From Candidatus Omnitrophota bacterium (GTDB lineage Bacteria > Omnitrophota > Gorgyraeia > Zapsychrales > JANLHA01): a stretch of 64,000 nucleotides of DNA. The position numbers and the translations under genes were made by a program. The notes beneath the pieces were generated by a model. That model made no database searches. It saw only the letters and a list, made by a program, of their open reading frames with translations, and had not been told where the DNA came from. The stretch covers positions 2,650,662 to 2,714,661 of the forward strand of contig OY759724.1 of assembly GCA_963662715.1 (NCBI GenBank), read 5' to 3'. Of the stretch, positions 260-38,586 are shown one piece after another. How positions within the stretch are numbered: the stretch's first letter is position 1; each line of letters starts with the position of its first letter.

Positions 260-269
260 CCTGCCCCCA

Positions 270-1121: not shown

Positions 1122-1147
1122 AATCGCCCGGCGTTTCTTGGCCGGGC

Positions 1148-1423
1148 TTAGAAGTTTCCCTCATTGACTTCCTTCAAAATAGCGTTATCTAATGATAAGT
1201 CAGCCACCAGTTTCTTTAACCGGGCATTCTCCCGTTCTAACTCTTTATACTTCTTGGCTTGATCTATTTTCATCCCGCCGTATGCCTTGCGCCAACGGTA
1301 ATAGGTCTGTTCCGATATGCCCGCTTGTCGGCAGGCATCTCCGGTGTCCAGCCCTTTACCAAGGTGTATTTCAACTTCTCGTAATTTCGTAATTATTTCT
1401 TCTGATTTGAATCTTTTACCCAT
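1148..1423 (-). CDS. IS3-family transposase OrfA (HTH + leucine-zipper)
   Basis: A 91-aa protein with an HTH segment ('...[17 protein letters not shown]...') followed by a heptad Leu/charged coiled coil ('[26 protein letters not shown]'), typical of IS3 OrfA. Confidence 0.85.
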
Positions 1424-1480
1424 TTTTGCCCCTTTCTGTTATCATTATTCTATCACAAAAAGTGGCTCAACTTTTGGGGG

Positions 1481-4498: not shown

Positions 4499-4855
4499 TT
4501 TTTTTAATATTGTGAAGGGATTCCACAAGAACCTGCCCCCCCCAGTTGTCATGGGGTCCCGCCACGTTTTGCTCATTTGAAGATTTGGTTCAGAAGCTGT
4601 CTTGTCATTGAAATCAAGGGTAATAAAACGGTAAAAATTATGTGAAAAAACTTTACGATGTGTTTTTTCTGTGCTAGGTTTAAATTATGTTTTCCTAAAT
4701 ATAATTGTTTTAGCATGTTATGCTATATATATCCTCGAGAAGATTTTTTTTTCTTCTTGCCCGTGGAGGCCTTGAGGGGAAGTCTTTTTATGGGGCAAGA
4801 GGAGCGCTAAGAAAATCAGGCAAAGATATACTGAACCAGCAAAGAGGAGGCGGTT

Positions 4856-6166
4856 ATGTTCAAACAAAGGGTGTTCATCAGGTGTCTTGTGTCGGCTGTT
4901 ATAGGTGTATTTGTCCTGTCGTCTCCAGGGATGGCGTCGGATGATGTGATAAGGACTCTTACAGAAAGATTGGACAAGTTAGAACAGGAAAATGCCGAAT
5001 TAAGAGCTGAGATTAATGCTATAAAAGGGCAAGTTGAGGGAGTGAAGAAGGAGACTCGTGATTCGAAAACAATGGGGGGAGAAGAAAGTGAAGGAAATTT
5101 GATTGTTAACAAGCCCCCGGTTCAAATAGAAGTCTACGGGATGATCAAGACGGATATGATTTATAATGATTCACAGGCCGGGGAAAGCGGCAGCCAGGCA
5201 CCATCGGAGAGCGAGGGGGCCCGTGATAATGATGAGTTTTTGTTTAATGCGCGGGATTCTCGTATAGGTTTAAATTTCATCGGGCCAAAAATATTCGATG
5301 ATGGAGAAATGAAGGGAAAAATTGAATTTGACTTTAACGGAAGCAGTGACGATCATTCGACCTCCTCCCAGCCAAGATTCCGTCACGTGTACGCCCAGGC
5401 ATCCTTCCCAAACTGGAGTCTGTTGGCCGGGCAGACAAACGCTTTTTTTTCTCCTTATAACCCGACGACTCTCACGGTTTACTCTATGAGACGGAAAGGA
5501 AATGTGGGATATCGGCATGCTCAGCTGAGGCTGACGAACATGTGGGAGAATATCCCTGGCGGAGATTTGAAGACAGACGTGGGGTTGATAGAAACAGATG
5601 ACCTGAACGCAGATGCGGGGTCTCCTGATTTTGTCGGATATATCACTTATACAACGGAGCTCCTGGATCGGCCGCTGGAGATCGGTGTCGGCGGTCTTTA
5701 TGGGCAGGCAGATATCTCCAGTACGGTGGATAAAAACGTTGATATATGGGCCGTAACAGGCCATATAAAATATCAGCCTCTCGATGAGTGGCAGTTGTTG
5801 ACGGAATTTTTCAAGGGGGCTGGTTTGACCTCTTACCGGGGCTTAGGCCCATCTGAAGTCACCAATGCCAGCGATGAGACCGCGAAAGCCATTGCCGGCA
5901 GCGGCGGATGGGTACAGATTAAATATAATCCTAACGATAAATGGGAAATCAATAACACTTACGGGATTGAGGATATTAAAACGACTTTAGGCGCGGCGGA
6001 CACGACAACCTGGGATTATCAATATTCTCATCTCCATAATGTGTTTTACAAGATCACGAACAACGTATCTGTGGGCCTTGAATATCAGAGAATTGTCGCG
6101 AAATTCAAACAAAAGGACGGCGGAGATTTGAACCGCTGGATGACGTCTATCATTTACAAATTTTAA
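4856..6166 (+). CDS. Outer-membrane beta-barrel porin-like protein with a signal peptide and an N-terminal coiled-coil segment
   Basis: A signal peptide ('...VLSSPGMASDD') is followed by a heptad coiled coil ('LTERLDKLEQENAELRAEINAIKGQVEGVKKE'). A long region of alternating amphipathic beta-strand pattern ends in the C-terminal '...IIYKF' aromatic residue typical of OM barrels. An RBS GAGGAGG precedes the ATG. Confidence 0.55.
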   Translation: MFKQRVFIRCLVSAVIGVFVLSSPGMASDDVIRTLTERLDKLEQENAELRAEINAIKGQVEGVKKETRDSKTMGGEESEGNLIVNKPPVQIEVYGMIKTDMIYNDSQAGESGSQAPSESEGARDNDEFLFNARDSRIGLNFIGPKIFDDGEMKGKIEFDFNGSSDDHSTSSQPRFRHVYAQASFPNWSLLAGQTNAFFSPYNPTTLTVYSMRRKGNVGYRHAQLRLTNMWENIPGGDLKTDVGLIETDDLNADAGSPDFVGYITYTTELLDRPLEIGVGGLYGQADISSTVDKNVDIWAVTGHIKYQPLDEWQLLTEFFKGAGLTSYRGLGPSEVTNASDETAKAIAGSGGWVQIKYNPNDKWEINNTYGIEDIKTTLGAADTTTWDYQYSHLHNVFYKITNNVSVGLEYQRIVAKFKQKDGGDLNRWMTSIIYKF

Positions 6167-6182
6167 CCTGATAAGAAATAAC

Positions 6183-6224
6183 CGCAAGAGCCGTACAGGA
6201 ACCACCCTGTGCGGTTTTTTTTTC
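6183..6224 (+). terminator. Putative rho-independent terminator after the porin gene
   Basis: An imperfect GC-rich hairpin (CCGCA...TGCGG) is followed by T9 directly downstream of the stop at 6166. Confidence 0.4.
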
Positions 6225-6370
6225 GGTGTATAAAGAGCTGTGTGAACTTGCTTTGTGTGGGCATGTTTTTTGTGCTAGAATTAATGTCCATTAGGATTGA
6301 AGAAAATCAGGGGACCGTAAACAGAACCGTATAATTTTTTATTAACGAATAAATAAGGAGGAATGCTGTC

Positions 6371-6883
6371 ATGGGAACCAGAGGAAGAGAGATACTGGAG
6401 TCTTTAGGAATTAAAATCCCTGAGCTGATTCATTTATTGAATAAAGCTTATGCCGATGAATGGTTTGCTTATTACCAGTACTGGCTTGGGGCCAAAGTGG
6501 CCGTGGGGATCCCGCGTGAAGCCGTTGTCGCCGAGCTGGTCCAGCACGCCGCGGATGAATTGCGGCACGCCGGGATGGTTGCGGACAGGATCATCCAACT
6601 GGGAGGAACCCCGCTGCTTGAACCGCAGGACTGGTACACCTCGACAAACTGCGGTTACGATAAGCCCGAGAATCCGGATGTGCGGGTTTTGCTGGATCAG
6701 AATATTAAAGGGGAACAATGCGCCATCACCGTCTATAAAAATTTAATGGATTATACGAAAGATAAAGATCCTGTCACGTATGATATTGCTCTGCAGATTA
6801 TGACAGATGAAATCGAGCATGAAGAAGATCTGGAAGCGATTAAAGAGGATATCAAGATGGCATACGGACAATACAAAAAGTAA
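6371..6883 (+). CDS. Ferritin-like diiron protein (bacterioferritin/Dps superfamily)
   Basis: A four-helix-bundle ligand pattern E..Y / E..ELRHA / E / EIEHE is spaced as in bacterioferritins. A strong RBS AAGGAGG lies upstream. Confidence 0.6.
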   Translation: MGTRGREILESLGIKIPELIHLLNKAYADEWFAYYQYWLGAKVAVGIPREAVVAELVQHAADELRHAGMVADRIIQLGGTPLLEPQDWYTSTNCGYDKPENPDVRVLLDQNIKGEQCAITVYKNLMDYTKDKDPVTYDIALQIMTDEIEHEEDLEAIKEDIKMAYGQYKK

Positions 6884-6909
6884 CGGGTGCTTCCCGTCAT
6901 ATTTTTTAT

Positions 6910-6940
6910 AAGAGGCACATAACTATGTGCCTCTTTTTTT
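6910..6940 (+). terminator. Rho-independent terminator
   Basis: A perfect hairpin AAGAGGCACAT-aact-ATGTGCCTCTT is followed by T5+ at 6936-6940. Confidence 0.7.
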
Positions 6941-7036
6941 GCCTTAAAAGGACATGCGCTTCAGCCGCCGGGGCGGTTTGAATCTATTGATGATTTTGCG
7001 GAAAGGGAAGAATGCGTGTTGTCAGGCCGTTTTGGC

Positions 7037-8515
7037 TCATTCCTGGATTTTGAATTTTTTGACCAGCCCCTTCAGCAATAATGCCTTGTCGTATAAGTTC
7101 CGGGCGGACTCGGCCAGATCAGCGGAGGACATCGTGAAGGCCTGAGTAATGCCGGAGTTCGAGTCCATGGCGATCTGCTGCTCTTCGGTCGTCTCCGTAA
7201 TGTCCCGGATCTGTTGGGCAATGGATGTCATGGCCGCAACAATTTTCTTGACATCTTCGCTGGCTTTTCGTGAGAGAGAAACGCTCTCTGCGACCTGCTG
7301 CAAACTGTCATGGATAACGTTTGTGATCCCCTGTGCTGATACGGCACTGCGTTCGGCGAGTTTCCGCACTTCATCGGCCACAACGGCGAAGCCTTTCCCG
7401 TGTTCGCCGGCACGGGCCGCTTCAATAGCGGCGTTTAAGGCCAGAAGATTTGTCTGTTCCGCAATTTCCGTAATGACATCAACGATTTTGTTGATCTCTT
7501 TAAAACAAAGCTCTACAGAATTAATGGCCATCGTTGAGCTATCCATGGCTTGTCCGGTTTCTTCGGCCCTGACGGCGGCCTGGCTGGAAAGTTTGACGAC
7601 TTCCCGCGCTTTTGACGTGTTTTCCTCCACCGAAGCAGAGAGTTCTTCGAAGCTCGAAGCTTGCTGTGTCGCCCCTTCCGAAATGGAATTGGCGCCGACG
7701 GCAATTTTTTTGCAGTCAGCTGAAAGGCTGTCGGCCGACACCTTGACATTAAGGAGGAGATTTTGAATTTTTTCACAGAACATGTTGAAAGCAGCCGAAA
7801 GCTTCCCGGCCTCATCTCCGCTTTCGCAGGCGATCCGTTTTGTTAAATCGCCTTCTCCCCGGGCGATGTTCTGCAACATTCCCGCGACTTTTTTGATGGG
7901 GCTGGCGATGCTCTTGTCAAGCCAGAAAACCAGGGCGCCGCCTAATAAAGCGGCTATCGTTGTCAGAAAAACATTAAACCAGAGGGTGCTGCGGGCGATG
8001 ATATTCACCCTCCCCAGAGATTGTGACATATGACGCATATCTTCTTCCTGGAAATCATCAAGAAGGAGATGGATTTTCTCACTGTTTAACCGGACCGAAA
8101 AGGAGGATCCCGGGCCAGGGCCTGCCGTGGGCTGTGTTTTATGCAAATAATTCAGGTGTTTATGAAATAATTCTTTTATTTCAGAGAGTTCCCTAAGACG
8201 GGTTTCGTTGTCTTTGAGGTCTTCTTCGAGTTCAGAAAGGTTGCGAAGAAATCTCTCTTCGAGAATTTTTAATTTTTTCAGATCCCCGGGGTTTGGCGAC
8301 GCAGGCCCTTGAGTGTGAATTTGCTGCATTTTGAGGACCGTTTCTTTCATGTCCGTGCCGTAATTCAGATGGGTGAAATCGTGATGCTCAACACAGTGGG
8401 TATTTTCTTGAATTTCCAGCAGCGTATAAATACTGCAGATGCAGACGGTCATTAAAAATAAGAAAATGATTCCGGATGAAAAGAATAATTTTGTCTGAAT
8501 ATTCCAGTTTTTCAT
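7037..8515 (-). CDS. Methyl-accepting chemotaxis protein (TM sensor, HAMP, MCP signalling domain)
   Basis: The highly conserved MCP signalling hairpin motif '[38 protein letters not shown]' is present. A HAMP-like segment and two TM helices flank a periplasmic region. Confidence 0.9.
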
Positions 8516-9013
8516 GTCGAGGATATTACAGTCTTTGTCCCTTTTCCTGGGGGCAGTGATTATTTGTCAAAACCAAGGATGCTCTTTAATCCTGAACGAA
8601 AAGATAGTTCAGCGCATCTCGGCCGGGGTGAAGGGGGCGTATAATAGAAGAAGAGGCAAGAAAAGAACTCATTCCCGCAGGCTTTGCCGTGTTATAATGC
8701 CGGGAGACACTGAAAATGATGTCCCAATAAATCATTCCGATCGTTAGCGTTACAGTTATATTATTCTAAACACAAATGAACCGGCAATCTATGAATTTTT
8801 TTCTTTTTTGCCCCTTATCATATCTTTTTGCCGCCCGGAAGTATAAGGCGATCTTTTTTTTTCGCCTTTTAGTTAAAATGGATGTTGTTCATGAATAATA
8901 TTTTTTAAAAGAGTGTTAGATATAAGGGCCTTGCAACGTCTTAAATAGTAACAAGGCTTTTTGTTTTTTTGGGGTGAAAATCTATTAATATCAAAATCGT
9001 TTCAGGAGGTGAC

Positions 9014-12000
9014 TATGGGATTGAGAATTCGAATAGTGTTCGTGGCCGTATTGTTATCATTCTTCCTGACTGGTGTCTGCGCTGCCGGTTTGGTCTATCA
9101 GGATTTTGAGGAAGGCAACGGCTCCGGGACATACGGGTGGGGATTTAATTCTGCCGTTACGGAATTTTCGGCAGGAGAGGAGCCTGTTTATTCCGGGGCG
9201 CGTTCGTGGAAGATAACATCTCCCGGGGACTGGGGGGGCACGGGCATCGCTTCCCAGGTGCAGACCTGGGACATGGATTTTGAGCCTGACCGGCACGACC
9301 GTCTGGTCTTTTGGGTTTATGCCCTTCCGGAAGAGACGAGCGAGAGCCTGGATAATGGCGTGGCCGTGAAGTTTTTTGACCGGGAGGATTACCGGAGCTC
9401 CGGCTTTGAAGTCTGGACAAGTAAGGCGGCAAAATACGGGGAATGGACACAGCTTTCGGTTCTTTTTTCCCAGCTTCCGGACGGATTCAATCTTAACAGA
9501 ATAGACAAGATAGAATTCGTCAATGAAAATCCCGGCACATATTATCTGGATGATATCCATGTCGTTTCCGCTGACCGGACATATCAGTCTTTTGAGCCGA
9601 TTCTTTATGACCCTTATTTTACCGGTGAGGAATATGAAAAATACGGCTGGGCCTGGTTCGGGATCGTGGATCTTTTTGTCGATGATCAGATTGTCCAGGA
9701 AGGACAGCAGTCCTGGATGCTGGACACGCATGACCTCATGGGAGGGACAGGGGTCAAATCCCAGGAAAAGAAATTTGTTGATAATGAACAGTCTCCCTGG
9801 TACGTGGATTTGCTGGGGGTTCGGGATCCGCTTTTACCGGAGGACAGCCCGTATGACCGGGTGACATTTTGGGTTTATTCCCTGGCAGAGAACGGATTGG
9901 ATAATAATATCGGCATGCAGTTTTTTGACCACAATTACTGGGTGGAGGATTTGGAAAATCCGGAGGAACGCAATCCGTTTATATTGTGGACCGAAGGGAC
10001 GGCTGATTACGGGGAGTGGAAAAGATTCACGGTCAAGTTCGATGAACTGCATTCTGGCGATCCTGCCGAACCGCCGGTGGATTTGCAGAATCTTAATAAG
10101 ATCCAGTTTCAGGTGTACTGGCGAGGACGTTATTTCTTCGATGACATTCGGGCGACGAAACCGTTCCCGGAGATCGATAGAATATCCTTAAAAGACGGCA
10201 CAGCCGAATGGAACACAATAGCCGGGGCGGATATTTATGTCTTGCAGCAAAGTTCAGCGGGGGCGAATGGCCCGTGGGAAACGATTTATGAAGGGCCTAG
10301 CACAAACGTTCCGGTCAGCAGGGTTTCCCAAGTCTGGTTACGGGTCGCCTGGAAAGAAGCGGTAGACCCGGCGAGCAATCCCGTCCCTTACATGTCGGAT
10401 TGGAGCGATGTGGCCAGTTATACACCGGCGCCGGTCCTTATCAGTAAGGACGCATTGAAACAGGGCACCCTGCAATGGTCTGATCTGCCCCAGGCCACGC
10501 AATATGAGGTTGAGATGGCCAGCAGTAAACGCGGTCCGTGGATTCCTGTTTATAACGGGCCTTATACAACACTTGCGGCAGCAACCGGGATATGGTACCG
10601 GGCCAGAGCGCTTATTGAGGACAGCGGGGCTGTCGTGGATACGGGCGAATGGAGTCCGGCGCAGACCTACACGCCGGGGACAGGATACATTAAGGCTGTT
10701 GGAAAGATTCTTAAAGAAGAGGACGGAACAGGAGATAATATTATTCTCCGGGGCGTGAATTTGGGGAATTATCTTCTGATAGAACCCTGGATGACCGGAA
10801 TAACTCTTGATACGAACCAGAGAACGGAAGATGACTGGAATATCCGGGAGGAGTTGATCCAGCGTTTCGGGGCCCAGGAAGCCGACCGTTTGCTGGGAAT
10901 CTATCAGGATGCCTATATCACGGAAACAGACCTGAACCACATCCTGCGAAGCGGAGCCAATTTGATCAGGCTTCCTATTTACTACCGGGCGCTCCGGGAG
11001 CTTGATGAAAATACCGGGGAATGGGTTGCCGGCACAGATTATAATTTTGACAAGATAGATGCTGTTGTGAATCTCTGCGCTGACCGGGGTATTTATGTCC
11101 TGCTGGATTTGCACGGCGCTCCGGGTGCGCAGAGCAAGGAATTTCATTCCGGCCGTACTTCGGCAGAAAGTCCGGGCCAGGGATTTTATCATAAATTGTT
11201 TGACCCGACAGATGATACGTACCGGCAGAGAACCACAGAGCTTTGGCAGGCTTTAGCGGATTATTACAAAGATAATACGACAGTCGTGGGGTATGATCTT
11301 TTGAACGAACCCTTCGGAGCCGTCGATGCGTATTATTACGCCAATTATCATGATGGGTTAACGGCGCTATGGACTCTCTATGATCAGCTGTATGACGCCA
11401 TTCGCGCCATAGACCCCCATCACCTTATCGTGATGGAAGCGATCCCCAGTGACAAAGACTGGGAAACTTTGCCTGACCCGGACGGGTACGGCTGGACAAA
11501 TGTCATGTATCAATTCCACTACTACGGGTTCAAGCTTGACGAAAACGGCAGCATCAACGGCGTGCTCGATGCGGATCAGCAGAAGGCCTATTTGGTCAGC
11601 GGGAATGACCCGGAGTGTGCTGTGTACCCGGATGATGATAAGTTCTGCGGAAAGGTTTTTTATTCTCAACAGGACGAATATGATGTCCCCGTCCTCATCG
11701 GGGAGTTCAACGGGTTTGATCAGCGGGAAGTTTGGGACCTGTTTTTAACGACGTTCAATAAACAGGCCTGGAACTGGACGATGTGGTCTTACAAGCATCA
11801 CCCCAAAAGAGAATCATGGGGGTTATATACGCATGTGAATTATGATGAGGATGCTCCCAACGTCAGTCTCGATGACACCGCCACTTTAGAAACAAAATTG
11901 GCAAAATATGATACTTTTGTTCACCATGAACCGAATGTGACTTTAAACAAAGTCCTTAAAAATTATTTGACCCAGCAAACCCTTGTTACCCAACCGGCTC

Positions 12001-12785
12001 TGGCGGGCCGCACCGCCGATGAAGTCAATCATCGTTGGTCTTCCGTTGACTTTGCGGACCGTTTTAAGAAAAAACCGGTGTTGGTGGCAGGAATTGAAAC
12101 ATATAACGGCCCCAATACTGCGGGCTTGAGAATCAAAAGCCTGAACAAAGGACGATTTAAAGTGAAAATCGAAGAGGAGCAGTCAGGGGACCCGGAAACA
12201 ATTCATACGACAGAAGTCGTGAGTTATCTGGCCCTGGAGCCGGGTATTGTTCTGGATGATACGGGCACGGTTATCGGTGAAGCAGGAAGCGTCACGGCCT
12301 ATCAACGCAACGGCGCCCAGTGGCATACGGTTACGCTGGAGCAGGAATATTCCAATCCCGTTGTTCTGATGCAGATGACAACCTATCATGGCCGCCAGCC
12401 TTCTCATATCCGTTTAAGGAATGTTTCCGGCCATTCCTTTGAGTATCAAATCGAAGAATGGGATTATCTGGATCAGTGGCATTTAACCGAGAAAATCAGT
12501 TATGTCGTTTTAGAACAGGGCGTTCACACTCTTACCAACGGCCAGACTATTGACGTGGGCACCGTGGATACGGATGAAAACTGGATAACGGTCCCGTATG
12601 CCGCGAGTTTTAATGCGGCTCCGGCCACAATAAGCCACTGTCAAACGTATAATGCCGGACAGGCTGTGATCACGCGCGAACAGAATGTGTCAAACAGCAG
12701 TTTTGAAGTCAAGCTGCAGGAAGAGGAGGGCGGAGCAGGTCCTCATCCGGTGGAGACAATCGGCTACATTGCCGTTGAGTTATAG
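9014..12785 (+). CDS. Secreted multidomain glycoside hydrolase family 5 enzyme: signal peptide, 2x CBM4/9-like modules, 2x FN3-like domains, GH5 catalytic domain, C-terminal beta domains
   Basis: GH5 signatures are present: the 'VGYDLLNEP' acid/base NEP motif and the 'LIGEFNGF' nucleophile Glu. The N-terminus carries two ~190-aa repeats ('YQDFE..GW....SW...GGTGI.SQ.Q...DRL.FWVY...KFFD...YY.DDI') resembling CBM_4_9. An RBS AGGAGGTG precedes the ATG at 9014. Confidence 0.8.
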
Positions 12786-16752: not shown

Positions 16753-16819
16753 CAGAGAAGTAAGGAGATCATGCATAATCATTTTCCTAAATTTAAAATC
16801 ATGAAAGGAGGTGATGATC

Positions 16820-16927
16820 ATGGAAATACTGAGACCCGGAACCGATGATGTCATGGAGCTGTCCGTGAGAGGATGTTGTTGGCCACCAAGTATAGATAAC
16901 ATTACAGTTCCCGAACCCGAAGAGTAA
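16820..16927 (+). CDS. Unannotated 35-aa ORF (MEILRPGTDDVMELSVRGCCWPPSIDNITVPEPEE): candidate RiPP precursor / signalling peptide
   Basis: An ATG sits 8 nt after a perfect SD AAAGGAGGTGA (16804-16814). The ORF lies 73 nt upstream of, and co-oriented with, an RRE-containing radical SAM/SPASM gene. It is below the length cut-off of the ORF track. Confidence 0.45.
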   Translation: MEILRPGTDDVMELSVRGCCWPPSIDNITVPEPEE

Positions 16928-16999
16928 TTCCCGGGGATTCCGTTGGCCCCTGTCTCTGTTAACGGAATCCCTGTATATTGTTTGCGGAAGAGGTTTTTT

Positions 17000-21274: not shown

Positions 21275-22753
21275 ATGTTGAAACCTATTAAAACGCTTTT
21301 AATTGAAGATGACCAGAGCAGTGCGGATCTTATTTCGGAATTCCTGCGACAAAATCATTGCCGGGCCTCAGTTTGTCACGTCGGTTCAATCAAGGAGTCG
21401 GTCGATTGCCTTAAAAATGAGACGTTTGATGTGATACTGCTGGATTTGACCCTCCCGGACAGCGAGGGCATGAATACCCTTGATAGCATTACTCGGGTCA
21501 ACACGGTTCTGCCTATCGTTATTTTAACCGGCCTTAATGACGAAAGCCTTGCTGTAGAAATGATCAAAAAGGGAGCCCAGGATTATTTGGTGAAAGGGCA
21601 GTTCAACAGTTCATTGCTGATGAGGGTGATTCAATATGCTATTGAGCGAAAAATTATCGAACAGGCGCTTCGTATTTCCGAGCAGGAATGGAGAAAAACG
21701 TTTAATGCCATTTCTGACAGGATCTTTATTCAGGATGAGGATTTTCGAATAGTAAAAATGAACAAAGCCTTTGCCCAGACCATGAAATTGAACCCGGAAG
21801 ATATTTTCGGAAAAAAATGCCATGAAGTCCTGCACGGGAGTGATCAGCCGATACCGCAATGTCCCTGCGTTAAGACCCGCTGCGATGGAATCTCTCACTG
21901 TGAAGAAATCCTGGATACGGAAACCGGGCAGTCTTTCCAGGTCACAACGTCACCGATTATCGAAAATAGTCTTTATAAAGGCGCTGTTCACATCGCCCGG
22001 GATATCACATCTCAAAAAAAGACGGACGAAGAATTGAAGGATATTCAGGCCCAGCTGCTGCAATTGGAGAAGATGGCTGTCCTTGGTCAGATGTCCGCGG
22101 GCATAACTCATGAGATTAAGAACCCTTTGTCGACGATTTTATTAAGTATAGACTGCATCAAAACAAAAATGGGAGGGAAGGACCCTATCCAGATAAAAGA
22201 GCTGCTCAATCTTCTGGAAGAGTCGGCTCAGCGTATTAATAAAGTCATCAACGAATTATTAAGCTTTGTGCGAACTCCGAATATCAAGGTCCAGAGGGTT
22301 AATTTGCACAGGGCGATAGACACGGCTATTTCCCTGCTGGACAATAAGGCCAGGCACAAGAACGTGATTTGTGAAAAATATTATTCGAAGGAAGATATTG
22401 AAATTAATGCCGATAAACTGCTGATAGAACAGGTGTTTTATAATCTGCTTTCCAACGCCGTTGATGCCATGGAACCCGGGGGACGCATCAAATTGAGAAC
22501 AGAATGCCCGGGGATGTCCGGGGGAGAAATGGTTGATGTCGAAATCTCCGATACCGGATGCGGCATGACAGACGAGGAAATCGTTAAAATTTTTGAACCT
22601 TTCTTTACCACCAAGGATTATGGCAAAGGGACGGGGCTTGGATTAAGTATCGTCAAAATGGTCGTGGAAAAACATAAAGGTTCTATTAACGTGGTCAGTC
22701 AAAAAGGTTCCGGCACATCCTTTACTGTCAGCCTTCCGGTCAGTGCCGGTTAA
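21275..22753 (+). CDS. Hybrid sensor: REC - PAS - HisKA - HATPase_c histidine kinase
   Basis: An N-terminal receiver ('LLIEDDQ', 'LLDLTLPD') is followed by a PAS-like region. The H-box 'ITHEIKNPLSTI' and ATPase boxes ('LLSNAVDA', 'DTGCGM', 'GTGLGLSIVK') are present. Confidence 0.85.
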   Translation: MLKPIKTLLIEDDQSSADLISEFLRQNHCRASVCHVGSIKESVDCLKNETFDVILLDLTLPDSEGMNTLDSITRVNTVLPIVILTGLNDESLAVEMIKKGAQDYLVKGQFNSSLLMRVIQYAIERKIIEQALRISEQEWRKTFNAISDRIFIQDEDFRIVKMNKAFAQTMKLNPEDIFGKKCHEVLHGSDQPIPQCPCVKTRCDGISHCEEILDTETGQSFQVTTSPIIENSLYKGAVHIARDITSQKKTDEELKDIQAQLLQLEKMAVLGQMSAGITHEIKNPLSTILLSIDCIKTKMGGKDPIQIKELLNLLEESAQRINKVINELLSFVRTPNIKVQRVNLHRAIDTAISLLDNKARHKNVICEKYYSKEDIEINADKLLIEQVFYNLLSNAVDAMEPGGRIKLRTECPGMSGGEMVDVEISDTGCGMTDEEIVKIFEPFFTTKDYGKGTGLGLSIVKMVVEKHKGSINVVSQKGSGTSFTVSLPVSAG

Positions 22754-23240
22754 AAAAGGGGAATATATGCCGTTCAGGAAAATTGTTGTTATTGATGATG
22801 AAAAAGATATCTGTCGTCTCATGAGAAGCATTTTAACCGAACTGGGCGATTATGAAGTCTTTGTCGCTTACAACGGGTCGATGGGGATGGCCCGATGCCT
22901 GACAGAGAAACCCGATATCATTTTTCTCGATTATGTTATGCCCCAGGAGAAAGGCAGCACGATGATTAAGCTTTTTAAGAGAAATAGGATCACCCAAAAT
23001 ACGCCTATTATTGTCATGAGCGGGTTAGGGGAAGCCATCACATTCGAAGAAAAGGAGTCATGGAGTTGGCTGACGGATTATTTGGATAATTTGGACCCCG
23101 ACCAGGAATTGGATGCGGTTAAAATTCCCGAAGAGATCGCCCGGTCCCTGGGCATTCGAGTCTACCTGCCTAAGCCGTTTAACAAAGAAGCTATTGCCCT
23201 GGCCCTTTCCTATATCCTGACGAAAGATGCCTCCGTATAG
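22743..23240 (+). CDS. Stand-alone receiver (REC) domain protein
   Basis: The sequence 'KIVVIDDEKDICRL', 'IIFLDYVMP', 'LPKPF' fits the REC fold. It overlaps the upstream kinase stop, suggesting translational coupling. Confidence 0.7.
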   Translation: MPVKKGEYMPFRKIVVIDDEKDICRLMRSILTELGDYEVFVAYNGSMGMARCLTEKPDIIFLDYVMPQEKGSTMIKLFKRNRITQNTPIIVMSGLGEAITFEEKESWSWLTDYLDNLDPDQELDAVKIPEEIARSLGIRVYLPKPFNKEAIALALSYILTKDASV

Positions 23241-23510: not shown

Positions 23511-24311
23511 ATGAAATATTTCATTTTAATACTATTTAATGCATTTTTGCTTTTTATCTTTATATCACAAGGGACTTTTGTCCAGGCGTCCATTCTTTAT
23601 CAGGATTTTGAGCCTAACAACGGCACGCCGGCGAAACCGGCCTCTGATTCTCAAGATCCAGAATATGGCTGGGCTTTTAACGAGGCTGATGCGAGATTAT
23701 CCCTGGATGGAGAACCTGTTCAGGCCGGGCTGTATTCCTGGCGGGTCGGGATCCCCTTTGCTGAAAAACTTGACTCGGGCAGTGGAATCGCCTCCCAAAC
23801 CCAGACCTATAATATGAATTTTATCCCGGAATGCTTTGATCGTTTAACATTCTGGATCTATTCCGAACCCCTGCATCCCGGGGCGCATACCGTCATGGTT
23901 AAATTTTTTGACCACGGAAAATATCATGATGAAGGTGTCGGGGTCTGGACCGCGGGGAAGGCTGCGCCGAATCAATGGGTTCGGCTGGAAATATTATTTG
24001 ATCAACTGCCCGCGGACTTTGACCTGGCCCATGTTGACAAAATTGAGTTTTTTAATTATTGGGACGGCATTTACTATTATGACGACATTCTCATTGCTTC
24101 CGCGCAGGGAGAGGGGGAAGATGCGGCTTGCCTGGAGACCGAAGGGTATGTCGTTTGTCATGAAGACCCTTTGAGGTCAGACAAGACGAAGAGTCTTTGT
24201 GTTTCTGTTTACAGCGGTCATGGCGAACAGTTGACGGATTATTCATATATCAAAAGCAAGAAACGGTTAAGGATTTTTGACCGGTTGCAGTCTTCGAAAG
24301 AGAAGAATTGA
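23511..24311 (+). CDS. Secreted single-module protein carrying the same CBM4/9-like domain found duplicated at the N-terminus of the GH5 enzyme
   Basis: A signal peptide is followed by the motifs 'YQDFEPNNG', 'GWAFN', 'SWRVG', 'GSGIASQTQT', 'DRLTFWIYS', 'VKFFDHG' and 'YYYDDILI'. These are colinear with the repeats at 9060-10200. Confidence 0.6.
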   Translation: MKYFILILFNAFLLFIFISQGTFVQASILYQDFEPNNGTPAKPASDSQDPEYGWAFNEADARLSLDGEPVQAGLYSWRVGIPFAEKLDSGSGIASQTQTYNMNFIPECFDRLTFWIYSEPLHPGAHTVMVKFFDHGKYHDEGVGVWTAGKAAPNQWVRLEILFDQLPADFDLAHVDKIEFFNYWDGIYYYDDILIASAQGEGEDAACLETEGYVVCHEDPLRSDKTKSLCVSVYSGHGEQLTDYSYIKSKKRLRIFDRLQSSKEKN

Positions 24312-24329: not shown

Positions 24330-24935
24330 ATGGATGAACAGGTCCTGTTGGAAAATTGCCTGGAGGGGAATAAAGCAGGGTGGGATGAATTCATGGAGAA
24401 ATATTCCCCGCTCATTTACGACTCCATCTTAAGAACGTTCCGCCGCTTTAATTACCAGGCTACACACGAGATGCTGGCTGACGTTCATCATGATTTCATC
24501 GTTTATCTGCTGGAGAATGATCATAAGATTTTAGGAGGTTTTGAAGGCCGCAATGGATGCCGATTTAAGCATTATCTGAGAACGGTTGTGATCCGTAAAA
24601 CCATTGATTTCTTGAGAAAGTCCAAGCAGGGCGGGCGTCCCCAGCGGGTGATGAGCATCAATTCGCAGAATGAGGCGGCCGTGCATCAGGCCCTCCCGAT
24701 CACGTCTTTTGAGCAGGATATTGATACCCGGTTAATTCTGCAGGCCGCGAATGAGATTTTTGATGAATTAAACAGCAACGAAAAAGATTTATGGCGGATG
24801 TTCTTTTCAGAAGAAATGAATCCTAAGGATATTGCTTTTCATCTGGGGATATCGGTTGACTGCTTCTATGTCCGAAAACAAAGATTATTAAGGAAACTCA
24901 AGACTTTAGCCGCGCGTAAGAATTTAACCTTTTAA
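24330..24935 (+). CDS. ECF-type sigma-70 family RNA polymerase sigma factor
   Basis: A region-2-like N-terminus and a region-4 HTH ('NSNEKDLWRMFFSEEMNPKDIAFHLGISVDCFYVRKQRLLRKLK') are present. The size is ~200 aa. Confidence 0.65.
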   Translation: MDEQVLLENCLEGNKAGWDEFMEKYSPLIYDSILRTFRRFNYQATHEMLADVHHDFIVYLLENDHKILGGFEGRNGCRFKHYLRTVVIRKTIDFLRKSKQGGRPQRVMSINSQNEAAVHQALPITSFEQDIDTRLILQAANEIFDELNSNEKDLWRMFFSEEMNPKDIAFHLGISVDCFYVRKQRLLRKLKTLAARKNLTF

Positions 24936-24951
24936 TGTTGCGCATTGCCGG

Positions 24952-25635
24952 GTGACAACGCATATGATCAATAATAATGAGCCTCAAAACGGAGCAGAGC
25001 TCACGGATGAGATGCTGACGAGTTACGTTGAAGGCCTTCTGCCTGATGCCGACCGACAGCGGGTCGAACGTTTTATCTCTCAAAATGTCTTCCTGCATGA
25101 GGAGGTGGAGGCTTTAAAGTCCGTTTATCAGGCCCAGCAGGCCGAGGGACTTAATGTGGTCCCTGATGACATAACGGAAAGGACACAGAAGATACTCGGG
25201 GAATATTTTCAGACGGATGTCCTGAAAATTGTCGTATCATGGGCGGACAATATATTCAGAGTTATCAAGAGCACCGGAGTCCTTCTCGTGGACCCTCAGG
25301 CTGCGGTTAAGCATGCTTTGCGGGACTCCGTGGCCAAGAGGAATGCCGCCGCTGTTCTGCAGAAGGATTTTCATAGGGCCCGGCTGATTGTCGAACTGTT
25401 CCCCCAGGGGGATGCCGCCATGACAGCGACAGTTATCCTTAAGAATTTTCAGGGACAGCTTGTCCAGACAATTCTGCGGATCACTTTGAAAGATCCTCAG
25501 GGAGAGCTGGAATCCCAGGATGTCAGTTCGGGGTACGCTGAGTTTGCGAATATCAAACCAGGAGAGTATCAGATCGATATCGCAGATTCCGGTCGTCGCA
25601 TTGGAATGATATCGCTACAAATAAACCATTTATGA
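24952..25635 (+). CDS. Putative soluble anti-sigma factor
   Basis: An N-terminal anti-sigma-like motif 'EMLTSYVEGLLPDADRQRVERFISQ' (cf. LSAYLDGEL...) is present. The gene immediately follows the sigma gene. No TM helix was recognised. Confidence 0.5.
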   Translation: MTTHMINNNEPQNGAELTDEMLTSYVEGLLPDADRQRVERFISQNVFLHEEVEALKSVYQAQQAEGLNVVPDDITERTQKILGEYFQTDVLKIVVSWADNIFRVIKSTGVLLVDPQAAVKHALRDSVAKRNAAAVLQKDFHRARLIVELFPQGDAAMTATVILKNFQGQLVQTILRITLKDPQGELESQDVSSGYAEFANIKPGEYQIDIADSGRRIGMISLQINHL

Positions 25636-27737
25636 TGGCAAGTTCTACTTTTATATTGGAAGTTATTATTGCTCGGAAGGCTCTGGCCATGAGTCTTTAT
25701 GAACGCGATTCCACCATGCGTCATTTTGATGAGGTCCTTCCCAATCAGCTGGTTATTGAACATTTATGTGCGGAAGCGATCCGTCTTATGAACAAGACGA
25801 ATGTCTTAGGTCCGGCATCCGTAGGGTTATCATTCGAGTTGAAGAAAATAGGGCGTGCTCTTTTTGACCAATTGTTGAGTGAAACAGTCAAGGTCAAGTT
25901 GATCGACTCTCCGGTAGAGAACCTGATCTTTCTTATGGATGAGGCTTTAATCCCCATCCCTTGGGAATTGTTGCATAACGGTCAGCAGTTCCTCTGTCTG
26001 CAATACAATGTGGGCCGCTCGGTCCGTACAAAGCGCCCTTCCTCGAAAACCGCCGAAAGAACCAGCTCATCGCCGATAAAAATGCTTGTCATGGCCGATC
26101 CCATCGGGGATCTGGATGAGGCCCGGGCGGAGGCGTTTAATATCCGTCAGGAGACAGACCAGAAAAAACATTTTTTTTCTGTGACGACGAAGTTAAAGAA
26201 AATAACAGTTGATTATGTCATCAAAAATTTGCAGGACTACGATATTGTTCATTTTGCCGGTCATAATGAATTTGACTACCAGAATCCCCTGAACAGCGGG
26301 TGGAAATTTTCCGACGGTCTATTCCGGGTTGAGGACGTTATTAAAATGAAGGGCGGGGCTGCTATGCCGCTGCTGATATTCTCCAACGCCTGTCAATCGG
26401 CGGTTTTATTGCGTGGGCAAAAAGTCATCGGAGAAACAGGCCGGATATTTTATGGCATTGCGAATGCCTTTTTGCTGGCCGGAGTGAAGCATTTTCTGGG
26501 AACGTTATGGGAAATCCCGGATCAGGTTGCGGCTGTTTTTTCCCGCGAGTTTTATGCGCAGATCTGTGAGGGCATGCCGATCGGGACGGCGATAAGAGAA
26601 GCGCGTTTAAAGATTATCCGGGTCTTTGGAGAAGATACGGTCATCTGGTCCTCCTATGTTTTATATGGGGACCCTTCGGCCCCGGTTGTTTCTCCGGAAA
26701 TGCTGGCAGCGCCGTCAGGGGAATCGGCTCCGGTTTTTACTCCGGTCTCGAAACAGATAGCCATATATGTCGGGATAGGATTGTTCACGCTTTTGGCGTT
26801 GGCCGTCTTGGAGAATGTCTCGCGACAAAGATCCCGGCAGTCTCTTATCCCGGACGTGAATGCCGTATCAGCACAAAAAAAGGTCGAGAAAAAACAGCCC
26901 AAAACATCTCCCCAAAAGAAAGACGTCACGCAGGAGGATATTCATGCTGTTTTCTGGCCCCCGGCGGAAAAAATTAATCAGATAATTCATGATCTTAATC
27001 TTGACCTCGGCAAGGTTGAGGATCCCAAGGTCCTTTACGAGTATTATCGTCTTTTGATAGATTCCTATGCCATGGTGAATCAATATCGTCTGGCAACGCT
27101 TTATACGGAAGCTGTCATAGAATTGGCTAAGGCTCAGGACGATAAAGATGTTTTGGTCGAGGCGTATCTGGAGTGCGCCGATGTCCTGCTGGAAGAATTT
27201 GTGTATTTCCGGCTTCCTATCGAATCAGTTGAGGAAAGAGGCAAGTTCGGGGATGCCGTCAGTAAACAGATTTTAACGAGGATAACAGGCTATTATCAGG
27301 AGGGCATGTCCCTGACGGTCGGGAAAGAAAATGTCCGGCAGCTTCTCCGGGCTTATCAGGGATTAGGAAGAGTCTATAAATATCACGACGACAACAAATC
27401 GGCGATTGCTTTTTACGAGAAAGCCGTAGAGATACTTGAACAAAGTCCCCAGCTGCCCCGCAGCGAAGTGTATCAGCTGGCCTATGATTATGTGGAGTTA
27501 GCCACTCTTTATCTGGAGGAACATAAGGCTTTTGACAGGGCCCTTGTATATTTAAGCCGTATGGTCAGGCAAATGAATGGCATCTCTCCCACGTCTTTGG
27601 AGGACCATGTCATTTTAAAACCCGTTATCCGGAAATTTGATCTGCTGCTCCGCGATCTTCATCAAAAAGGCTTGTCATCCACGCAGTTTTATCCTAAGGC
27701 TATGCAGTTATACCGGAATCTGAACACAAAACGGTAA
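25632..27737 (+). CDS. CHAT-domain (caspase-like) protease fused to a single TM helix and a C-terminal helical/TPR-like domain
   Basis: The CHAT catalytic dyad context is present: 'IVHFAGHNEF' (His), 'LLIFSNACQSA' (Cys) and 'ANAFLLAGVKHFLGTLWEIPD'. A TM helix 'IAIYVGIGLFTLLALAVL' and a Lys-rich linker follow. The start codon overlaps the anti-sigma stop (ATGA). Confidence 0.75.
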   Translation: MMASSTFILEVIIARKALAMSLYERDSTMRHFDEVLPNQLVIEHLCAEAIRLMNKTNVLGPASVGLSFELKKIGRALFDQLLSETVKVKLIDSPVENLIFLMDEALIPIPWELLHNGQQFLCLQYNVGRSVRTKRPSSKTAERTSSSPIKMLVMADPIGDLDEARAEAFNIRQETDQKKHFFSVTTKLKKITVDYVIKNLQDYDIVHFAGHNEFDYQNPLNSGWKFSDGLFRVEDVIKMKGGAAMPLLIFSNACQSAVLLRGQKVIGETGRIFYGIANAFLLAGVKHFLGTLWEIPDQVAAVFSREFYAQICEGMPIGTAIREARLKIIRVFGEDTVIWSSYVLYGDPSAPVVSPEMLAAPSGESAPVFTPVSKQIAIYVGIGLFTLLALAVLENVSRQRSRQSLIPDVNAVSAQKKVEKKQPKTSPQKKDVTQEDIHAVFWPPAEKINQIIHDLNLDLGKVEDPKVLYEYYRLLIDSYAMVNQYRLATLYTEAVIELAKAQDDKDVLVEAYLECADVLLEEFVYFRLPIESVEERGKFGDAVSKQILTRITGYYQEGMSLTVGKENVRQLLRAYQGLGRVYKYHDDNKSAIAFYEKAVEILEQSPQLPRSEVYQLAYDYVELATLYLEEHKAFDRALVYLSRMVRQMNGISPTSLEDHVILKPVIRKFDLLLRDLHQKGLSSTQFYPKAMQLYRNLNTKR

Positions 27738-28459: not shown

Positions 28460-30427
28460 TCAGAAAAGATAAGCGCCCCAGAAGGAAAGGATAAGGACAA
28501 ACAGAATCGCGAGTCCCCATTTGCATGTTGTGAAAAGAAAAGCAAAGAATATGACCGGATGCAGAATGCTTATGGAGGCGTGAGTGAAATGTTTGGTCTG
28601 AAATACGGGCCAGTAGCAGGAGAAGTTCCGCCAGTTCAGGCTGAGCATCCGCTCTTGTTGCAGCATATCTTTATACAATTGGGTTCCTGGCAGAGGCGTC
28701 AGAAGAGAGACAGCGGTCCAGTCCGGAAAAATACGGAAACAACACAGCCAATATTTGAAGATGTTTTTTATCCTGTCTGAATCAAAGCCGATGATGAAAT
28801 GTCCTTCAATATGTATTCCCGCCTTTTTAATCCTTTTCGTATATTCAATAAACTTGTCTGCCAGGGCGAACTTCCCTCCTTGAGACTTTTCCAGGGAAGC
28901 GCTGGTGATTTCATACCCGATCAGCAGCCCCTGACAGCCGCTTTCTTTAGCCAATTTCAGCAGGGGTTCGTTGCCTCCGATATCGATACTACAGTTGGCA
29001 ATCCATTTCATTTTTAACGGTTTCAGGGCCGTGAACAATTGTTTGGCATAGGCCGGGTCAGAATAAATGTTGTTGTCAATAAAGCTGACGGTCGTGTATT
29101 TGGTCCTTACTCTTTCAAGTATTCTGACGACCTGTTCCACCGTCCTGTGCCCGAACCGGCCTTGGCACAGAGCGGAAATGCAGCAAAAGGAACAGTGGAA
29201 CTTACAGCCATAACTCGCTTCCAGATAATAACGGATAATATCCGGGGAGGCGTTCAGAAGTTCATTGTAAATCCTGTCGCGGACAGCTTGCGAGGCCGCG
29301 CCGCCCTGATACATTTTTTTGAGGGAATTGTTTTCATGATCCCGAACAACCTCTTCCCAGACACTTTCAACCTCTCCGACCACCACGGCATCGCAGAATT
29401 CCAAAGCTTCATGGGGGACAAAAGACACATGAGGCCCGCCCATGATGACAGTAGAGCCTTTTTGGCGAAAGCCTTTGGCGATACGGTAGGCTTCAAAGCA
29501 GTTGCTGGTAAAGCAGGTGATCGCCACCAATTTCCCGGGGCGGAAGTAAGACGACTGCCAGAAAACTCTTGAAAAGCTGCGGACGGAATAATTCTTAGGC
29601 GTTAAGGCCGAAAGCACGACGAACACCGGCGGATAAAATCGCAGAAAGATAGAGGTTAAGACTTCGATGACAGAGCCTCCTCCCAGGGGATTGATAAGAA
29701 AAAGCTCTTTCTCCGGAGGAGGATTCCGGCTGAAGTAGTCCGTTTTTGAAAAAAACAAAAGGCAGAGATAAACGAATAGAAAAAGGTGCGTATATTTTAC
29801 GATAAATATGAGGCTTAAAGTCAGAAGGGCATGTATTTGCGGTTCTTGTTTTAACAACACGGCACAAGAGATGTTGATAAGGATAATCAGCAGAATCTGG
29901 ACGACTGTCTTCAGAGGTAGCGGAAGGCTTAAAAGCTTGCCGGGAGATGTTTTAAGGAAATATCTCGCAATAATGAGCAGGGTTAAAAATATGAGGCAAA
30001 CGGGCTCCAAAAAAACAGTCCAGTAGGCGTAATCCATGCGCGGGAGGAAGACAAAGGAACAAAACTGTATGCCTAGAAGGAAAATTTGAAAAAAGGTGAA
30101 AAGAAGCCAGGTGCGCTTGATTTGTTCTATGATCAAAGGTCTGGATACGAGATATTCTTTCCCGGAGCACAGCACGGCAAAACAGCCGTATATCCCTGAG
30201 TAAATGATGATTTTTAAAGGCAGTAAGCTCAGGAATATGAAAGGGAAGAGAGACTTGAAAATGCCGGCAGGCAGGAGGATGCTGATGGACGGGATCTCCA
30301 GTAAAAGAATAAGGAAGACGGCGGACATCAGGGAATGAAGAATATTCCAAGTGTCTTTTAACGGATGTTCAGCTGAATTCATGATCAAAAGAATCCGAAG
30401 GCGGCAGATATCTGTCCCCGGGTTCAT
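28460..30427 (-). CDS. Membrane-embedded B12-binding radical SAM enzyme (polytopic N-terminal domain + class B radical SAM)
   Basis: About 300 aa of multiple TM helices are followed by a B12-binding-like segment ('LVAITCFTSNCFEAYRIAKGFRQKGSTVIMGGPHVS'). The radical SAM motif 'CKFHCSFCC' and a 'FIDNN' / GG region follow. Confidence 0.75.
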   Translation of the reverse strand: MNPGTDICRLRILLIMNSAEHPLKDTWNILHSLMSAVFLILLLEIPSISILLPAGIFKSLFPFIFLSLLPLKIIIYSGIYGCFAVLCSGKEYLVSRPLIIEQIKRTWLLFTFFQIFLLGIQFCSFVFLPRMDYAYWTVFLEPVCLIFLTLLIIARYFLKTSPGKLLSLPLPLKTVVQILLIILINISCAVLLKQEPQIHALLTLSLIFIVKYTHLFLFVYLCLLFFSKTDYFSRNPPPEKELFLINPLGGGSVIEVLTSIFLRFYPPVFVVLSALTPKNYSVRSFSRVFWQSSYFRPGKLVAITCFTSNCFEAYRIAKGFRQKGSTVIMGGPHVSFVPHEALEFCDAVVVGEVESVWEEVVRDHENNSLKKMYQGGAASQAVRDRIYNELLNASPDIIRYYLEASYGCKFHCSFCCISALCQGRFGHRTVEQVVRILERVRTKYTTVSFIDNNIYSDPAYAKQLFTALKPLKMKWIANCSIDIGGNEPLLKLAKESGCQGLLIGYEITSASLEKSQGGKFALADKFIEYTKRIKKAGIHIEGHFIIGFDSDRIKNIFKYWLCCFRIFPDWTAVSLLTPLPGTQLYKDMLQQERMLSLNWRNFSCYWPVFQTKHFTHASISILHPVIFFAFLFTTCKWGLAILFVLILSFWGAYLF

Positions 30428-38517: not shown

Positions 38518-38586
38518 GTATAATAAAAAAAGGGAATAAGCGTTGAACTTTTATCCCGGAGCCTGAATAAGGGAGAGGTGTGCTTG

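Follow-up and report, generated by a model that had tools for sequence, protein, structure and literature searches.

A candidate RiPP precursor of a Cys-Cys family beside a radical SAM/SPASM enzyme in a conserved cassette of Omnitrophota

We analyzed a 64-kb stretch of DNA from a Candidatus Omnitrophota bacterium (contig OY759724.1, positions 2,650,662 to 2,714,661), which is called the window here. The subject of the analysis was a 35-codon open reading frame (ORF) located directly upstream of a gene for a radical S-adenosylmethionine (SAM)/SPASM enzyme. The results suggested that the ORF is a real precursor gene for a ribosomally synthesized and posttranslationally modified peptide (RiPP), and that the peptide is matured by the adjacent radical SAM enzyme within a conserved gene cassette; we put the probability of this reading at about three in four. 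The parts of the reading differed in strength. The ORF is almost certainly a real gene, and the peptide is very probably the substrate of the adjacent enzyme. In kind, the pair would likely be a radical SAM/SPASM-modified RiPP, which is a known type of system. What is new is a peptide and enzyme family that falls outside the geopeptide thresholds on both partners and that resides in a receptor-binder-kinase-regulator cassette for which the literature searched contained no description.

The peptide gene and its family

The ORF extended from ATG 16820 to TAA 16925-16927 on the + strand, and a direct reading of its 35 codons yielded MEILRPGTDDVMELSVRGCCWPPSIDNITVPEPEE. The GGAGG of the Shine-Dalgarno site was located 8 nt upstream of the ATG. 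The 10-mer AAGGAGGTGA occurred only once in the window, at this site, compared to 0.19 occurrences expected by chance, and the Shine-Dalgarno site of the peptide gene was the strongest in the window. These data confirmed the first-pass annotation, which had placed a 35-codon ORF with a well-spaced Shine-Dalgarno site at this ATG. A counterpart AAAGGAGGT site preceded the peptide ORF in nearly all related loci, and the peptide ORFs of 20 related loci were located behind a AAAGGAGG-type ribosome-binding site. The ORF escaped only those ORF tracks that are filtered by length; the identical 35-amino acid (aa) sequence was present in a public protein collection as a called gene with no name. No second copy of the peptide was found in the window.

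The intergenic region that holds the ORF had been described as an empty-looking gap of 190 nt. That length is correct if the radical SAM gene starts at TTG 16943, which is where a mechanical ORF list placed the start. However, homologues of the enzyme aligned from the Met at ATG 17000 (MKYSHYTIIV), and the preceding solute-binding protein gene has its stop at 16752, which gives a gap of 247 nt. We concluded that the TTG-initiated extension of the enzyme (positions 16943-16999) is an artefact, because it overlaps a hairpin located just past the peptide gene and has no counterpart in the homologues. The homologues' start at ATG 17000 and the hairpin that the extension would have to cross both identify 247 nt as the true length of the gap.

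The hairpin was a strong stem-loop located directly past the peptide stop codon. The fold of the intergenic region had a dG of -25.8 kcal/mol and a z score of -4.1 relative to shuffled sequences. A hairpin was present at the same place in 17 of the 18 loci examined, with z scores of -2.3 to -7.4 and, in some loci, a T-run after it. The sequences of these hairpins were unrelated; thus, it was the structure and not the sequence that was kept. Hairpins are common after RiPP precursor genes, where they raise the ratio of precursor transcripts to enzyme transcripts, and the hairpin identified here is a candidate intra-operon attenuator or transcript stabiliser. A promoter and terminator scan of the window yielded counts no higher than those in shuffled sequences, and it overlooked the post-peptide hairpin because of the 10-nt loop. 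Rfam searches identified no riboswitch or other RNA family in the window, and no tRNAs were found there.

Three sets of related loci (L numbers) were used to examine conservation of the ORF. The first set came from a scan of species-representative genomes, in which 7 of the 80 loci listed were relevant (L001-L007). The second set (L084-L100) was obtained by searching metagenome contigs with an enzyme sub-alignment specific to the family, and the third came from exact look-ups of homologous enzymes (L081-L083 and L101-L103). The stretch upstream of the radical SAM start could be examined in 24 distinct loci, and 20 of them had, directly upstream of the radical SAM gene, a homologous ORF of 29-36 codons with a Cys-Cys pair at about positions 19-21. 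Among 15 close homologues of the peptide ORF, pairwise differences at codon positions 1, 2, and 3 were 0.26, 0.23, and 0.58, respectively. Furthermore, invariant residues of the peptide were spelled by several synonymous codons in these homologues, and all four Pro codons were used at Pro22. The codon-position pattern and the synonymous spelling indicated that the ORF is a translated gene under purifying selection. Hence, the conservation of a small ORF beside orthologous radical SAM genes, which the first-pass annotation had proposed as a check, was found. A chance ORF was ruled out by the conservation in 20 of 24 loci and by the coding substitution pattern.

Profile searches of public protein collections placed 42 called proteins and 51 cluster representatives in the peptide family, and none of them carried a name beyond "hypothetical protein". 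When the peptides from the loci and the profile searches were pooled and restricted to those with the two cysteines exactly at positions 19-20, a set of 74 distinct peptides was obtained. The core, C-C-[WFY]-P-P-G-[TS], was the most conserved part of these peptides (mean column entropy of 0.62 bits), and Pro22 was invariant. Conservation was moderate (1.69 bits) across residues 1-18 (M-E-I-I-x-x-G-[TS]-[DE]-D-...), and the acidic tail at the C terminus, which was 5-14 residues long, was highly variable (3.1 bits per column). Exactly two cysteines were present in the window peptide and in 73 of the 74 family members. In the window peptide, residues 1-18 were leader-like (MEI[IL]xxG[TS][DE]D), Cys19-Cys20-Trp-Pro-Pro formed the conserved core, and residues 26-35 formed the variable acidic tail. 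Thus, the division into an acidic, leader-like N-terminal half and a GCCWPP core that had been proposed from the window sequence fit the conservation profile. More distant sub-families (L003, L005, L006, L101, and L102) retained only a short hydrophobic N-terminal motif and the Cys-Cys pair, whose distance from the N terminus was unchanged.

In one related locus (L004, positions 4303-7352), which is from an Omnitrophota metagenome-assembled genome (MAG), the binding-protein and radical SAM genes matched the window proteins only in several frame-shifted pieces, and the peptide ORF was intact. Long-read sequencing errors would explain the frame shifts, or else the two genes are pseudogenes.

The radical SAM/SPASM enzyme and its named relatives

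The enzyme encoded downstream of the peptide contained the radical SAM motif C105-x3-C109-x2-C112 (CxxxCxxC), which was invariant in 38 homologues, and it matched the Pfam Radical_SAM model with 66 bits (cutoff, 29.5 bits). It also contained SPASM-type cysteines (C340-x14-G355-x4-C360; C395-x3-C399-x5-C405-x3-C409; and C425) that were invariant or at least 90% conserved in the same homologues. The second of these blocks opens with x3, whereas the SPASM pattern (C-x9-15-G-x4-C, C-x2-C-x5-C-x3-C, C) has x2. Both the CxxxCxxC core and the SPASM Cys cluster had been noted in the first-pass annotation. In total, more than 800 related enzymes were found.

The N-terminal part of the enzyme had been described as a PqqD-like RiPP recognition element (RRE). 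The string on which that description was based corresponds to residues 19-42, which are located within a predicted domain of three strands and three helices. Specifically, residues 1-64 were predicted to form strands at 7-11, 18-23, and 29-33 and helices at 34-41, 46-54, and 56-64, with a predicted local distance difference test (pLDDT) score above 95. When the N-terminal domain was modelled alone (pLDDT, 95.2), its best matches in the PDB were the RREs of TbiB1, SuiB, CteB, and LynD. Based on these models, the N-terminal domain is likely, but not proven, to be an RRE.

The AlphaFold (AF2) model of the entire enzyme had a mean pLDDT of 92.6, and its best full-length PDB match was CteB (5wgg; template modeling [TM] score, 0.68), with a sequence identity of about 17%. 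CteB also ranked first in a profile search of solved structures, and SuiB was a weaker structural match. In searches with NCBIfam models, the enzyme scored 264 bits against TIGR04280, 167 against CefB, 149 against TIGR04463, 123 against PapB, 96 against SCIFF, 76 against anSME, and 58 against the mycofactocin radical SAM enzyme. By these scores, the enzyme grouped with peptide maturases. The TIGR04280 alignment ran from end to end (enzyme residues 1-442 to profile positions 1-425 of 428). TIGR04280 was also the best match of each of nine relatives, among them the most divergent ones, with scores of 247-334 bits that were always under the 400-bit cutoff. An anSME-like enzyme that does not modify peptides, which the first-pass annotation had named among the findings that would undo its proposal, was ruled out by the anSME score (76 bits versus a 349-bit cutoff) and the additional N-terminal domain. 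No sulfatase gene was found in the cassette in any locus examined.

TIGR04280 is one half of the geopeptide system, the other half being the precursor model TIGR04229. The window peptide matched no Pfam or NCBIfam model, and it did not match TIGR04229 even at an E value of ≤10. The earlier statement that the peptide resembles no precursor family that can be named nevertheless needs to be qualified, as four sister peptides matched the 22-position TIGR04229 model with 13-20.6 bits, below the 30-bit cutoff. The best match was that of the L083 peptide (20.6 bits; E value, 2.7e-4), and it covered residues 2-21, which extend from the leader through the Cys-Cys pair. Thus, TIGR04280 was the best-scoring family for the enzyme and sister peptides aligned weakly with TIGR04229, and in sequence terms the geopeptide system is the nearest named relative of both partners. 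There were also clear differences. The enzyme scored 264 bits against a cutoff of 400 bits, the window peptide had no match, and the best sister peptide scored 20.6 bits against a cutoff of 30 bits. The carriers identified here were mostly Omnitrophota and allied bacteria rather than Geobacter, and when the relative nearest to TIGR04280 was used as the query, Omnitrophota proteins alone were retrieved. Furthermore, the peptides identified here extend 10-15 residues past the short geopeptide model, and their family has a fixed Cys-Cys-aromatic-Pro-Pro-Gly core followed by a variable tail. The window peptide is likely to be a RiPP precursor of a Cys-Cys family that is distantly related to the geopeptide family, as judged by sequence. 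Comparative genomics appears to be the sole basis on which the geopeptide system itself is defined. In the literature searched, we found no description of the geopeptide system (TIGR04280/TIGR04229) or of the cassette, and no reaction was reported for any enzyme in the clade, including the named geopeptide maturases.

Among characterized systems, CteB (the maturase of the SCIFF peptide CteA, or thermocellin), PapB, QhpD, and AlbA have an RRE, a radical SAM core, and a SPASM domain with two auxiliary clusters, and the predicted architecture of the enzyme, with a putative RRE, resembles theirs. Like the substrates of CteB and other ranthipeptide and sactipeptide maturases, the peptide bears cysteine. 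However, it has two adjacent cysteines, whereas CteA has six across 45 residues, and the enzyme scored only 96 bits against the SCIFF model (cutoff, 425 bits) and 123 bits against the PapB model (cutoff, 340 bits). Hence, neither the enzyme score nor the number of cysteines in the peptide placed the pair with the ranthipeptide/SCIFF systems (TIGR03974, six Cys in 45 residues). The family also did not fit the streptide type, in which StrB/SuiB joins Lys to Trp, because Lys was nowhere conserved and 20 of the 74 peptides had Phe, Tyr, or Met in place of Trp21.

The cassette and the role of the product

The peptide and enzyme genes were located in a cassette with the following order: TonB-dependent receptor, solute-binding protein (SBP_bac_5), peptide, radical SAM enzyme, an optional ATP-binding cassette (ABC) exporter, dCache/HAMP kinase, receiver/AraC regulator, and, often, a stand-alone receiver. 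This order held as identity between the enzymes fell from 60% to about 33%. Neither the wider cassette nor the hairpin past the peptide gene had been noted in the first-pass annotation. Named carriers of the cassette were mostly Omnitrophota, together with one Auribacterota MAG. The window features are listed in Table 1.

Table 1. Features of the peptide cassette and their positions in the window
Feature	Position	Strand	Evidence
TonB-dependent outer-membrane receptor, Plug + 22-strand barrel, 628 aa	12979..14865	+	Pfam Plug, TonB_dep_Rec_b-barrel
Periplasmic solute-binding protein, family 5, oligopeptide type, N-terminal signal sequence, 563 aa	15061..16752	+	Pfam SBP_bac_5, 245 bits
Shine-Dalgarno site AAAGGAGGTGA of the peptide gene	16804..16814	+	Direct sequence reading
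Precursor peptide gene (candidate RiPP), 35 aa	16820..16927	+	Sequence, homologues, coding signature, family profile
Strong stem-loop, arms GGGATTCCGTT / AACGGAATCCC	~16932..16973	+	Fold of intergenic region, directly past peptide stop
Radical SAM/SPASM enzyme (putative peptide maturase), N-terminal RRE-like domain, 450 aa	17000..18352	+	Pfam Radical_SAM, NCBIfam, Cys motifs, AF2 model
Sensor histidine kinase, periplasmic dCache_1, HAMP, HATPase, 621 aa	18371..20236	+	Pfam
Response regulator, receiver + AraC-type HTH, 235 aa	20304..21011	+	Pfam Response_reg, HTH_18/HTH_AraC
Stand-alone receiver-domain protein, possible accessory cassette member	22743..23240	+	71% identity to L081 gene after AraC regulator

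The first gene of the conserved cassette encodes the TonB-dependent receptor, and a receptor homologue was located upstream of the binding-protein gene in L001, L002, L004, L006, L081-L083, L093-L095, L097, L101, and L103. In each of the 20 loci with a peptide ORF, an SBP_bac_5 gene ended shortly before it. The nearest solved structure to the binding protein was that of AppA (1xoc), the nonapeptide-binding protein of Bacillus subtilis, with 209 bits; NikA scored about 107 bits. The kinase gene was located downstream of the radical SAM gene, or of the ABC exporter gene, in every locus that reached far enough, and an AraC-type regulator followed the kinase in L002, L004, L081-L083, L087, L089, L093, L094, L098, L099, and L103. 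Single-receiver genes were found in the same position in L082, L083, and L103; in the window, a hybrid receiver-PAS-kinase gene (positions 21275-22753) separates the AraC regulator from the stand-alone receiver. The ABC exporter (membrane and ATPase domains, about 570 aa) was present in about two thirds of the loci; besides the window, the loci in which it was missing were L081, L082, L091, L093, L095, L099, and L102. No inner-membrane import permease or ATPase was found in any annotated locus, which fits sensing rather than uptake into the cytoplasm.

The regulatory output of the cassette varied among loci. In L101 (positions 2756-4156), a sigma-54 activator-type response regulator located upstream replaced the AraC type. 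In L102 (positions 9320-11884), a receiver was fused to the kinase, which was a dCache-PAS hybrid, and the TonB-dependent receptor was absent. L083 carried a second module immediately upstream (positions 61-4137) that consisted of a TonB-dependent receptor, a DUF4154 protein, a CHASE8 histidine kinase, and a receiver protein, and this arrangement suggests that these genomes have a wider habit of coupling receptors to two-component systems.

The mechanism that we propose is as follows. The hairpin would let peptide transcripts outnumber enzyme transcripts. The conserved residues 1-18 of the peptide (MEIIxxG[TS]DD...) would dock on the putative N-terminal RRE, and the fixed leader length would set Cys19-Cys20 at the active site. 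A 5'-deoxyadenosyl radical would then take an H atom, and one or both Cys sulfurs would be joined to a carbon of a nearby residue in a thioether. A thioether was proposed because the nearest characterised relatives of the enzyme, CteB, PapB, and QhpD, form thioethers; on this analogy, we give thioether chemistry at the Cys pair an even chance. Candidate acceptors would be Thr/Ser25 (Ser24 or Asp26 in the window peptide) or a backbone C-alpha. CteB reportedly cross-links Cys32 to Thr37 in CteA, a spacing equal to the usual one of Cys20 to Thr/Ser25 in the family.

The product is probably an extracellular signal or scavenger. The modified peptide would be exported, by the cassette ABC exporter in about two thirds of the loci and by an exporter supplied from elsewhere in this genome. 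The TonB-dependent receptor would return the peptide across the outer membrane, and the periplasmic binding protein would bind it. The dCache kinase would sense the peptide and drive the AraC-type regulator, which would make the peptide a self-sensed secreted signal. Four features favored a signalling role over a metallophore: the tail is variable, the binder is of the oligopeptide type, an importer is missing, and the kinase and regulator pair is obligatory. We propose this role tentatively, at somewhat less than even odds. With somewhat greater reserve, the cassette may be a full peptide autoinducer circuit for outer-membrane bacteria, in which the hypervariable tail would set strain-specific "pherotypes".

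Several observations weigh against the proposed precursor, its maturation, or its signalling role. Four loci (L007, L086, L089, and L090) carried a radical SAM gene of the family with no recognisable Cys-Cys peptide ORF upstream. Three of these four loci had an ABC exporter downstream, and L089 and L090 also lacked the binding protein; their precursor may be encoded elsewhere or lost. The window peptide was atypical at positions 24-25, where it had Ser-Ile in place of Gly-Thr/Ser. Specifically, it was the sole family member with Ser24 (Gly in 67 of 74), and its Ile25 stood where 64 of 74 members had Thr or Ser. In the case of the enzyme, the Pfam PqqD and SPASM models gave no match even at an E value of ≤10; hence, the RRE and SPASM assignments were made from motifs and predicted structure. 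The fold matches of the putative RRE were weak, with TM scores of about 0.4 (for TbiB1, a probability of 0.99 and an E value of 5.5e-3). The wider family had no acceptor residue that was invariant, which prevents assignment of the cross-link to a site, and a backbone C-alpha link of the sactionine type is equally possible. An ABC-exporter homologue was found nowhere in the window. The cassette contained no protease, and the ABC exporter was too short for a C39 peptidase domain, which leaves removal of the leader unexplained. Finally, the pair of receptor and binding protein suits a metallophore about as well as it suits signalling.

If the same precursor and maturase make a metallophore, the Cys-Cys peptide would be secreted, capture metal, and be recovered via the receptor and the family-5 binder, with the two-component system controlling production. 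A TonB-dependent receptor and an SBP_bac_5 protein encoded beside a Cys-containing RiPP precursor follow the logic of methanobactin operons. Methanobactin is recovered via MbnT and MbnE, and operons with MbnE encode no inner-membrane importer, which is likewise absent from the cassette. Thus, the likeness to methanobactin operons includes a short Cys-containing peptide, a TonB-dependent transporter (MbnT), an SBP_bac_5 binder (MbnE), an exporter, and a dedicated regulator; it also extends to the lack of an inner-membrane permease dedicated to the peptide. The two cysteines are also the invariant residues of the peptide, and the family-5 binders NikA and CntA (nickel and metallophore) were among the matches of the binding protein. 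However, the binding protein was far closer to AppA than to NikA, which makes an oligopeptide binder its nearest relative, and thioether formation would consume the thiols needed for metal. The maturase in the cassette is a radical SAM/SPASM enzyme rather than the MbnB/MbnC pair that acts on MbnA, and neither MbnB (DUF692/MNIO) nor MbnC was found in the cassette of any annotated locus. In methanobactin operons, regulation involves a sigma/anti-sigma pair, whereas the conserved cassette has a dCache kinase and an AraC regulator and has no metal-responsive regulator, riboswitch, or extracytoplasmic function (ECF) sigma/anti-sigma pair. A tail with 3.1 bits per column also suits the specificity of a ligand for its receptor more than it suits a conserved metal site. 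Overall, a metallophore seems unlikely.

Many thioether peptides made by radical SAM enzymes (sactipeptides) are antibacterial, many carriers of the cassette are Omnitrophota, and the ABC exporter in about two thirds of the loci could serve to release a bacteriocin-like antimicrobial that acts on competitors or prey, in which case the receptor, binder, and kinase would provide immunity or regulation. An outer-membrane importer and a periplasmic binder for a cell's own toxin would be counterproductive, however, and the kinase and regulator were as closely linked as the enzyme. Moreover, neither an immunity gene nor a leader-cleaving peptidase domain was conserved in the cassette. We consider an antimicrobial product improbable.

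The adjacency of a radical SAM/SPASM enzyme with a putative RRE and a very short peptide whose one invariant feature is a tiny motif also brings to mind pyrroloquinoline quinone and mycofactocin, for which radical SAM enzymes that bear an RRE use PqqA and MftA as the starting peptides. By analogy, the peptide would be a sacrificial scaffold, and a cofactor-like molecule would be cut from its Cys-Cys-Trp-Pro core. PqqE and MftC are homologous SPASM enzymes, but the 58 bits obtained with the mycofactocin model were far below the scores obtained with models of thioether-type peptide maturases. The cassette had no conserved peptidase, oxidase, or other tailoring gene, and its binding protein is of the oligopeptide type, so a scaffold role is more improbable still.

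Least credible of all is a cis-regulatory leader peptide with no function of its own, in which ribosome pausing at Pro-Pro-Gly/Ser and the hairpin would tune expression of the radical SAM gene: a short ORF and a strong hairpin just before an enzyme gene do resemble attenuators, and Pro-Pro motifs do slow ribosomes, but, unlike in attenuator leaders, selection acted on the amino acids of the N-terminal half and core and left synonymous changes free, the hairpins began past the stop codon with no alternative pairing evident, the enzyme carries a putative peptide-recognition domain, and sister peptides matched a RiPP precursor model.

One described system in a diderm bacterium resembles the cassette in part. 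The Itf cluster of Bacteroides thetaiotaomicron encodes the radical SAM enzyme ItfD, the precursor ItfA, the transporter/peptidase ItfE, and the TonB-dependent transporter ItfF (PMC11002830). Like the cassette, it is a SPASM/twitch radical SAM RiPP cluster with a TonB-dependent transporter and an ABC exporter. In contrast, neither a binding protein nor a two-component system appears in the description of the cluster (PMC11002830).

Neighboring genes and wider significance

Several other genes in the window were recorded. Directly upstream of the cassette (positions 8961-12785, + strand) is a gene for a 1,274-aa protein that contains a GH5 cellulase domain. This protein also has two copies of a roughly 200-aa N-terminal domain without a Pfam match, and a 266-aa protein encoded downstream of the cassette (positions 23511-24311, + strand) consists of a domain of the same type. 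A 266-aa homologue with 54% identity was located at the same position in L081. Past the cassette (positions 24330-27737, + strand) are genes that encode an ECF-type sigma factor, a putative anti-sigma protein, and a CHAT-domain protein of 701 aa, and L081 had a CHAT protein with 46% identity at the same relative position. On the - strand (positions 28460-30427), the window encodes a 655-aa protein with a long N-terminal multi-pass membrane region, a B12-binding domain, and a radical SAM domain; this protein is an unusual membrane-anchored class B radical SAM enzyme that is unrelated to the peptide cassette. A third radical SAM-domain protein (positions 38578-39651, + strand; 357 aa), which had a weak Pfam match, is also unlinked to the cassette.

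The peptide family described here comprises 74 distinct precursors, each with an adjacent Cys pair at a fixed distance from the N terminus, and it is accompanied by the more than 800 related enzymes noted above. The peptide and enzyme pair offers a direct route to possibly new radical SAM chemistry. The cassette is also of a kind that is rarely seen, in that a ribosomal peptide is tied to an outer-membrane importer, a periplasmic peptide binder, and a two-component sensor.

Peptide signalling is typically a Gram-positive trait. If the product is a signal, it would be new for diderms to have a TonB-dependent route dedicated to a peptide signal of their own making. If the cassette is an autoinducer circuit, it would represent a new class of peptide cell-cell signalling that is widespread in the largely uncultivated Omnitrophota, with new chemistry at the invariant Cys-Cys pair. 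A metallophore product, in contrast, would represent a second way in which a RiPP serves metal capture, independent of methanobactin. Because most of the carriers are uncultivated Omnitrophota and their relatives, the cassette provides a testable entry to the extracellular biology of these organisms.

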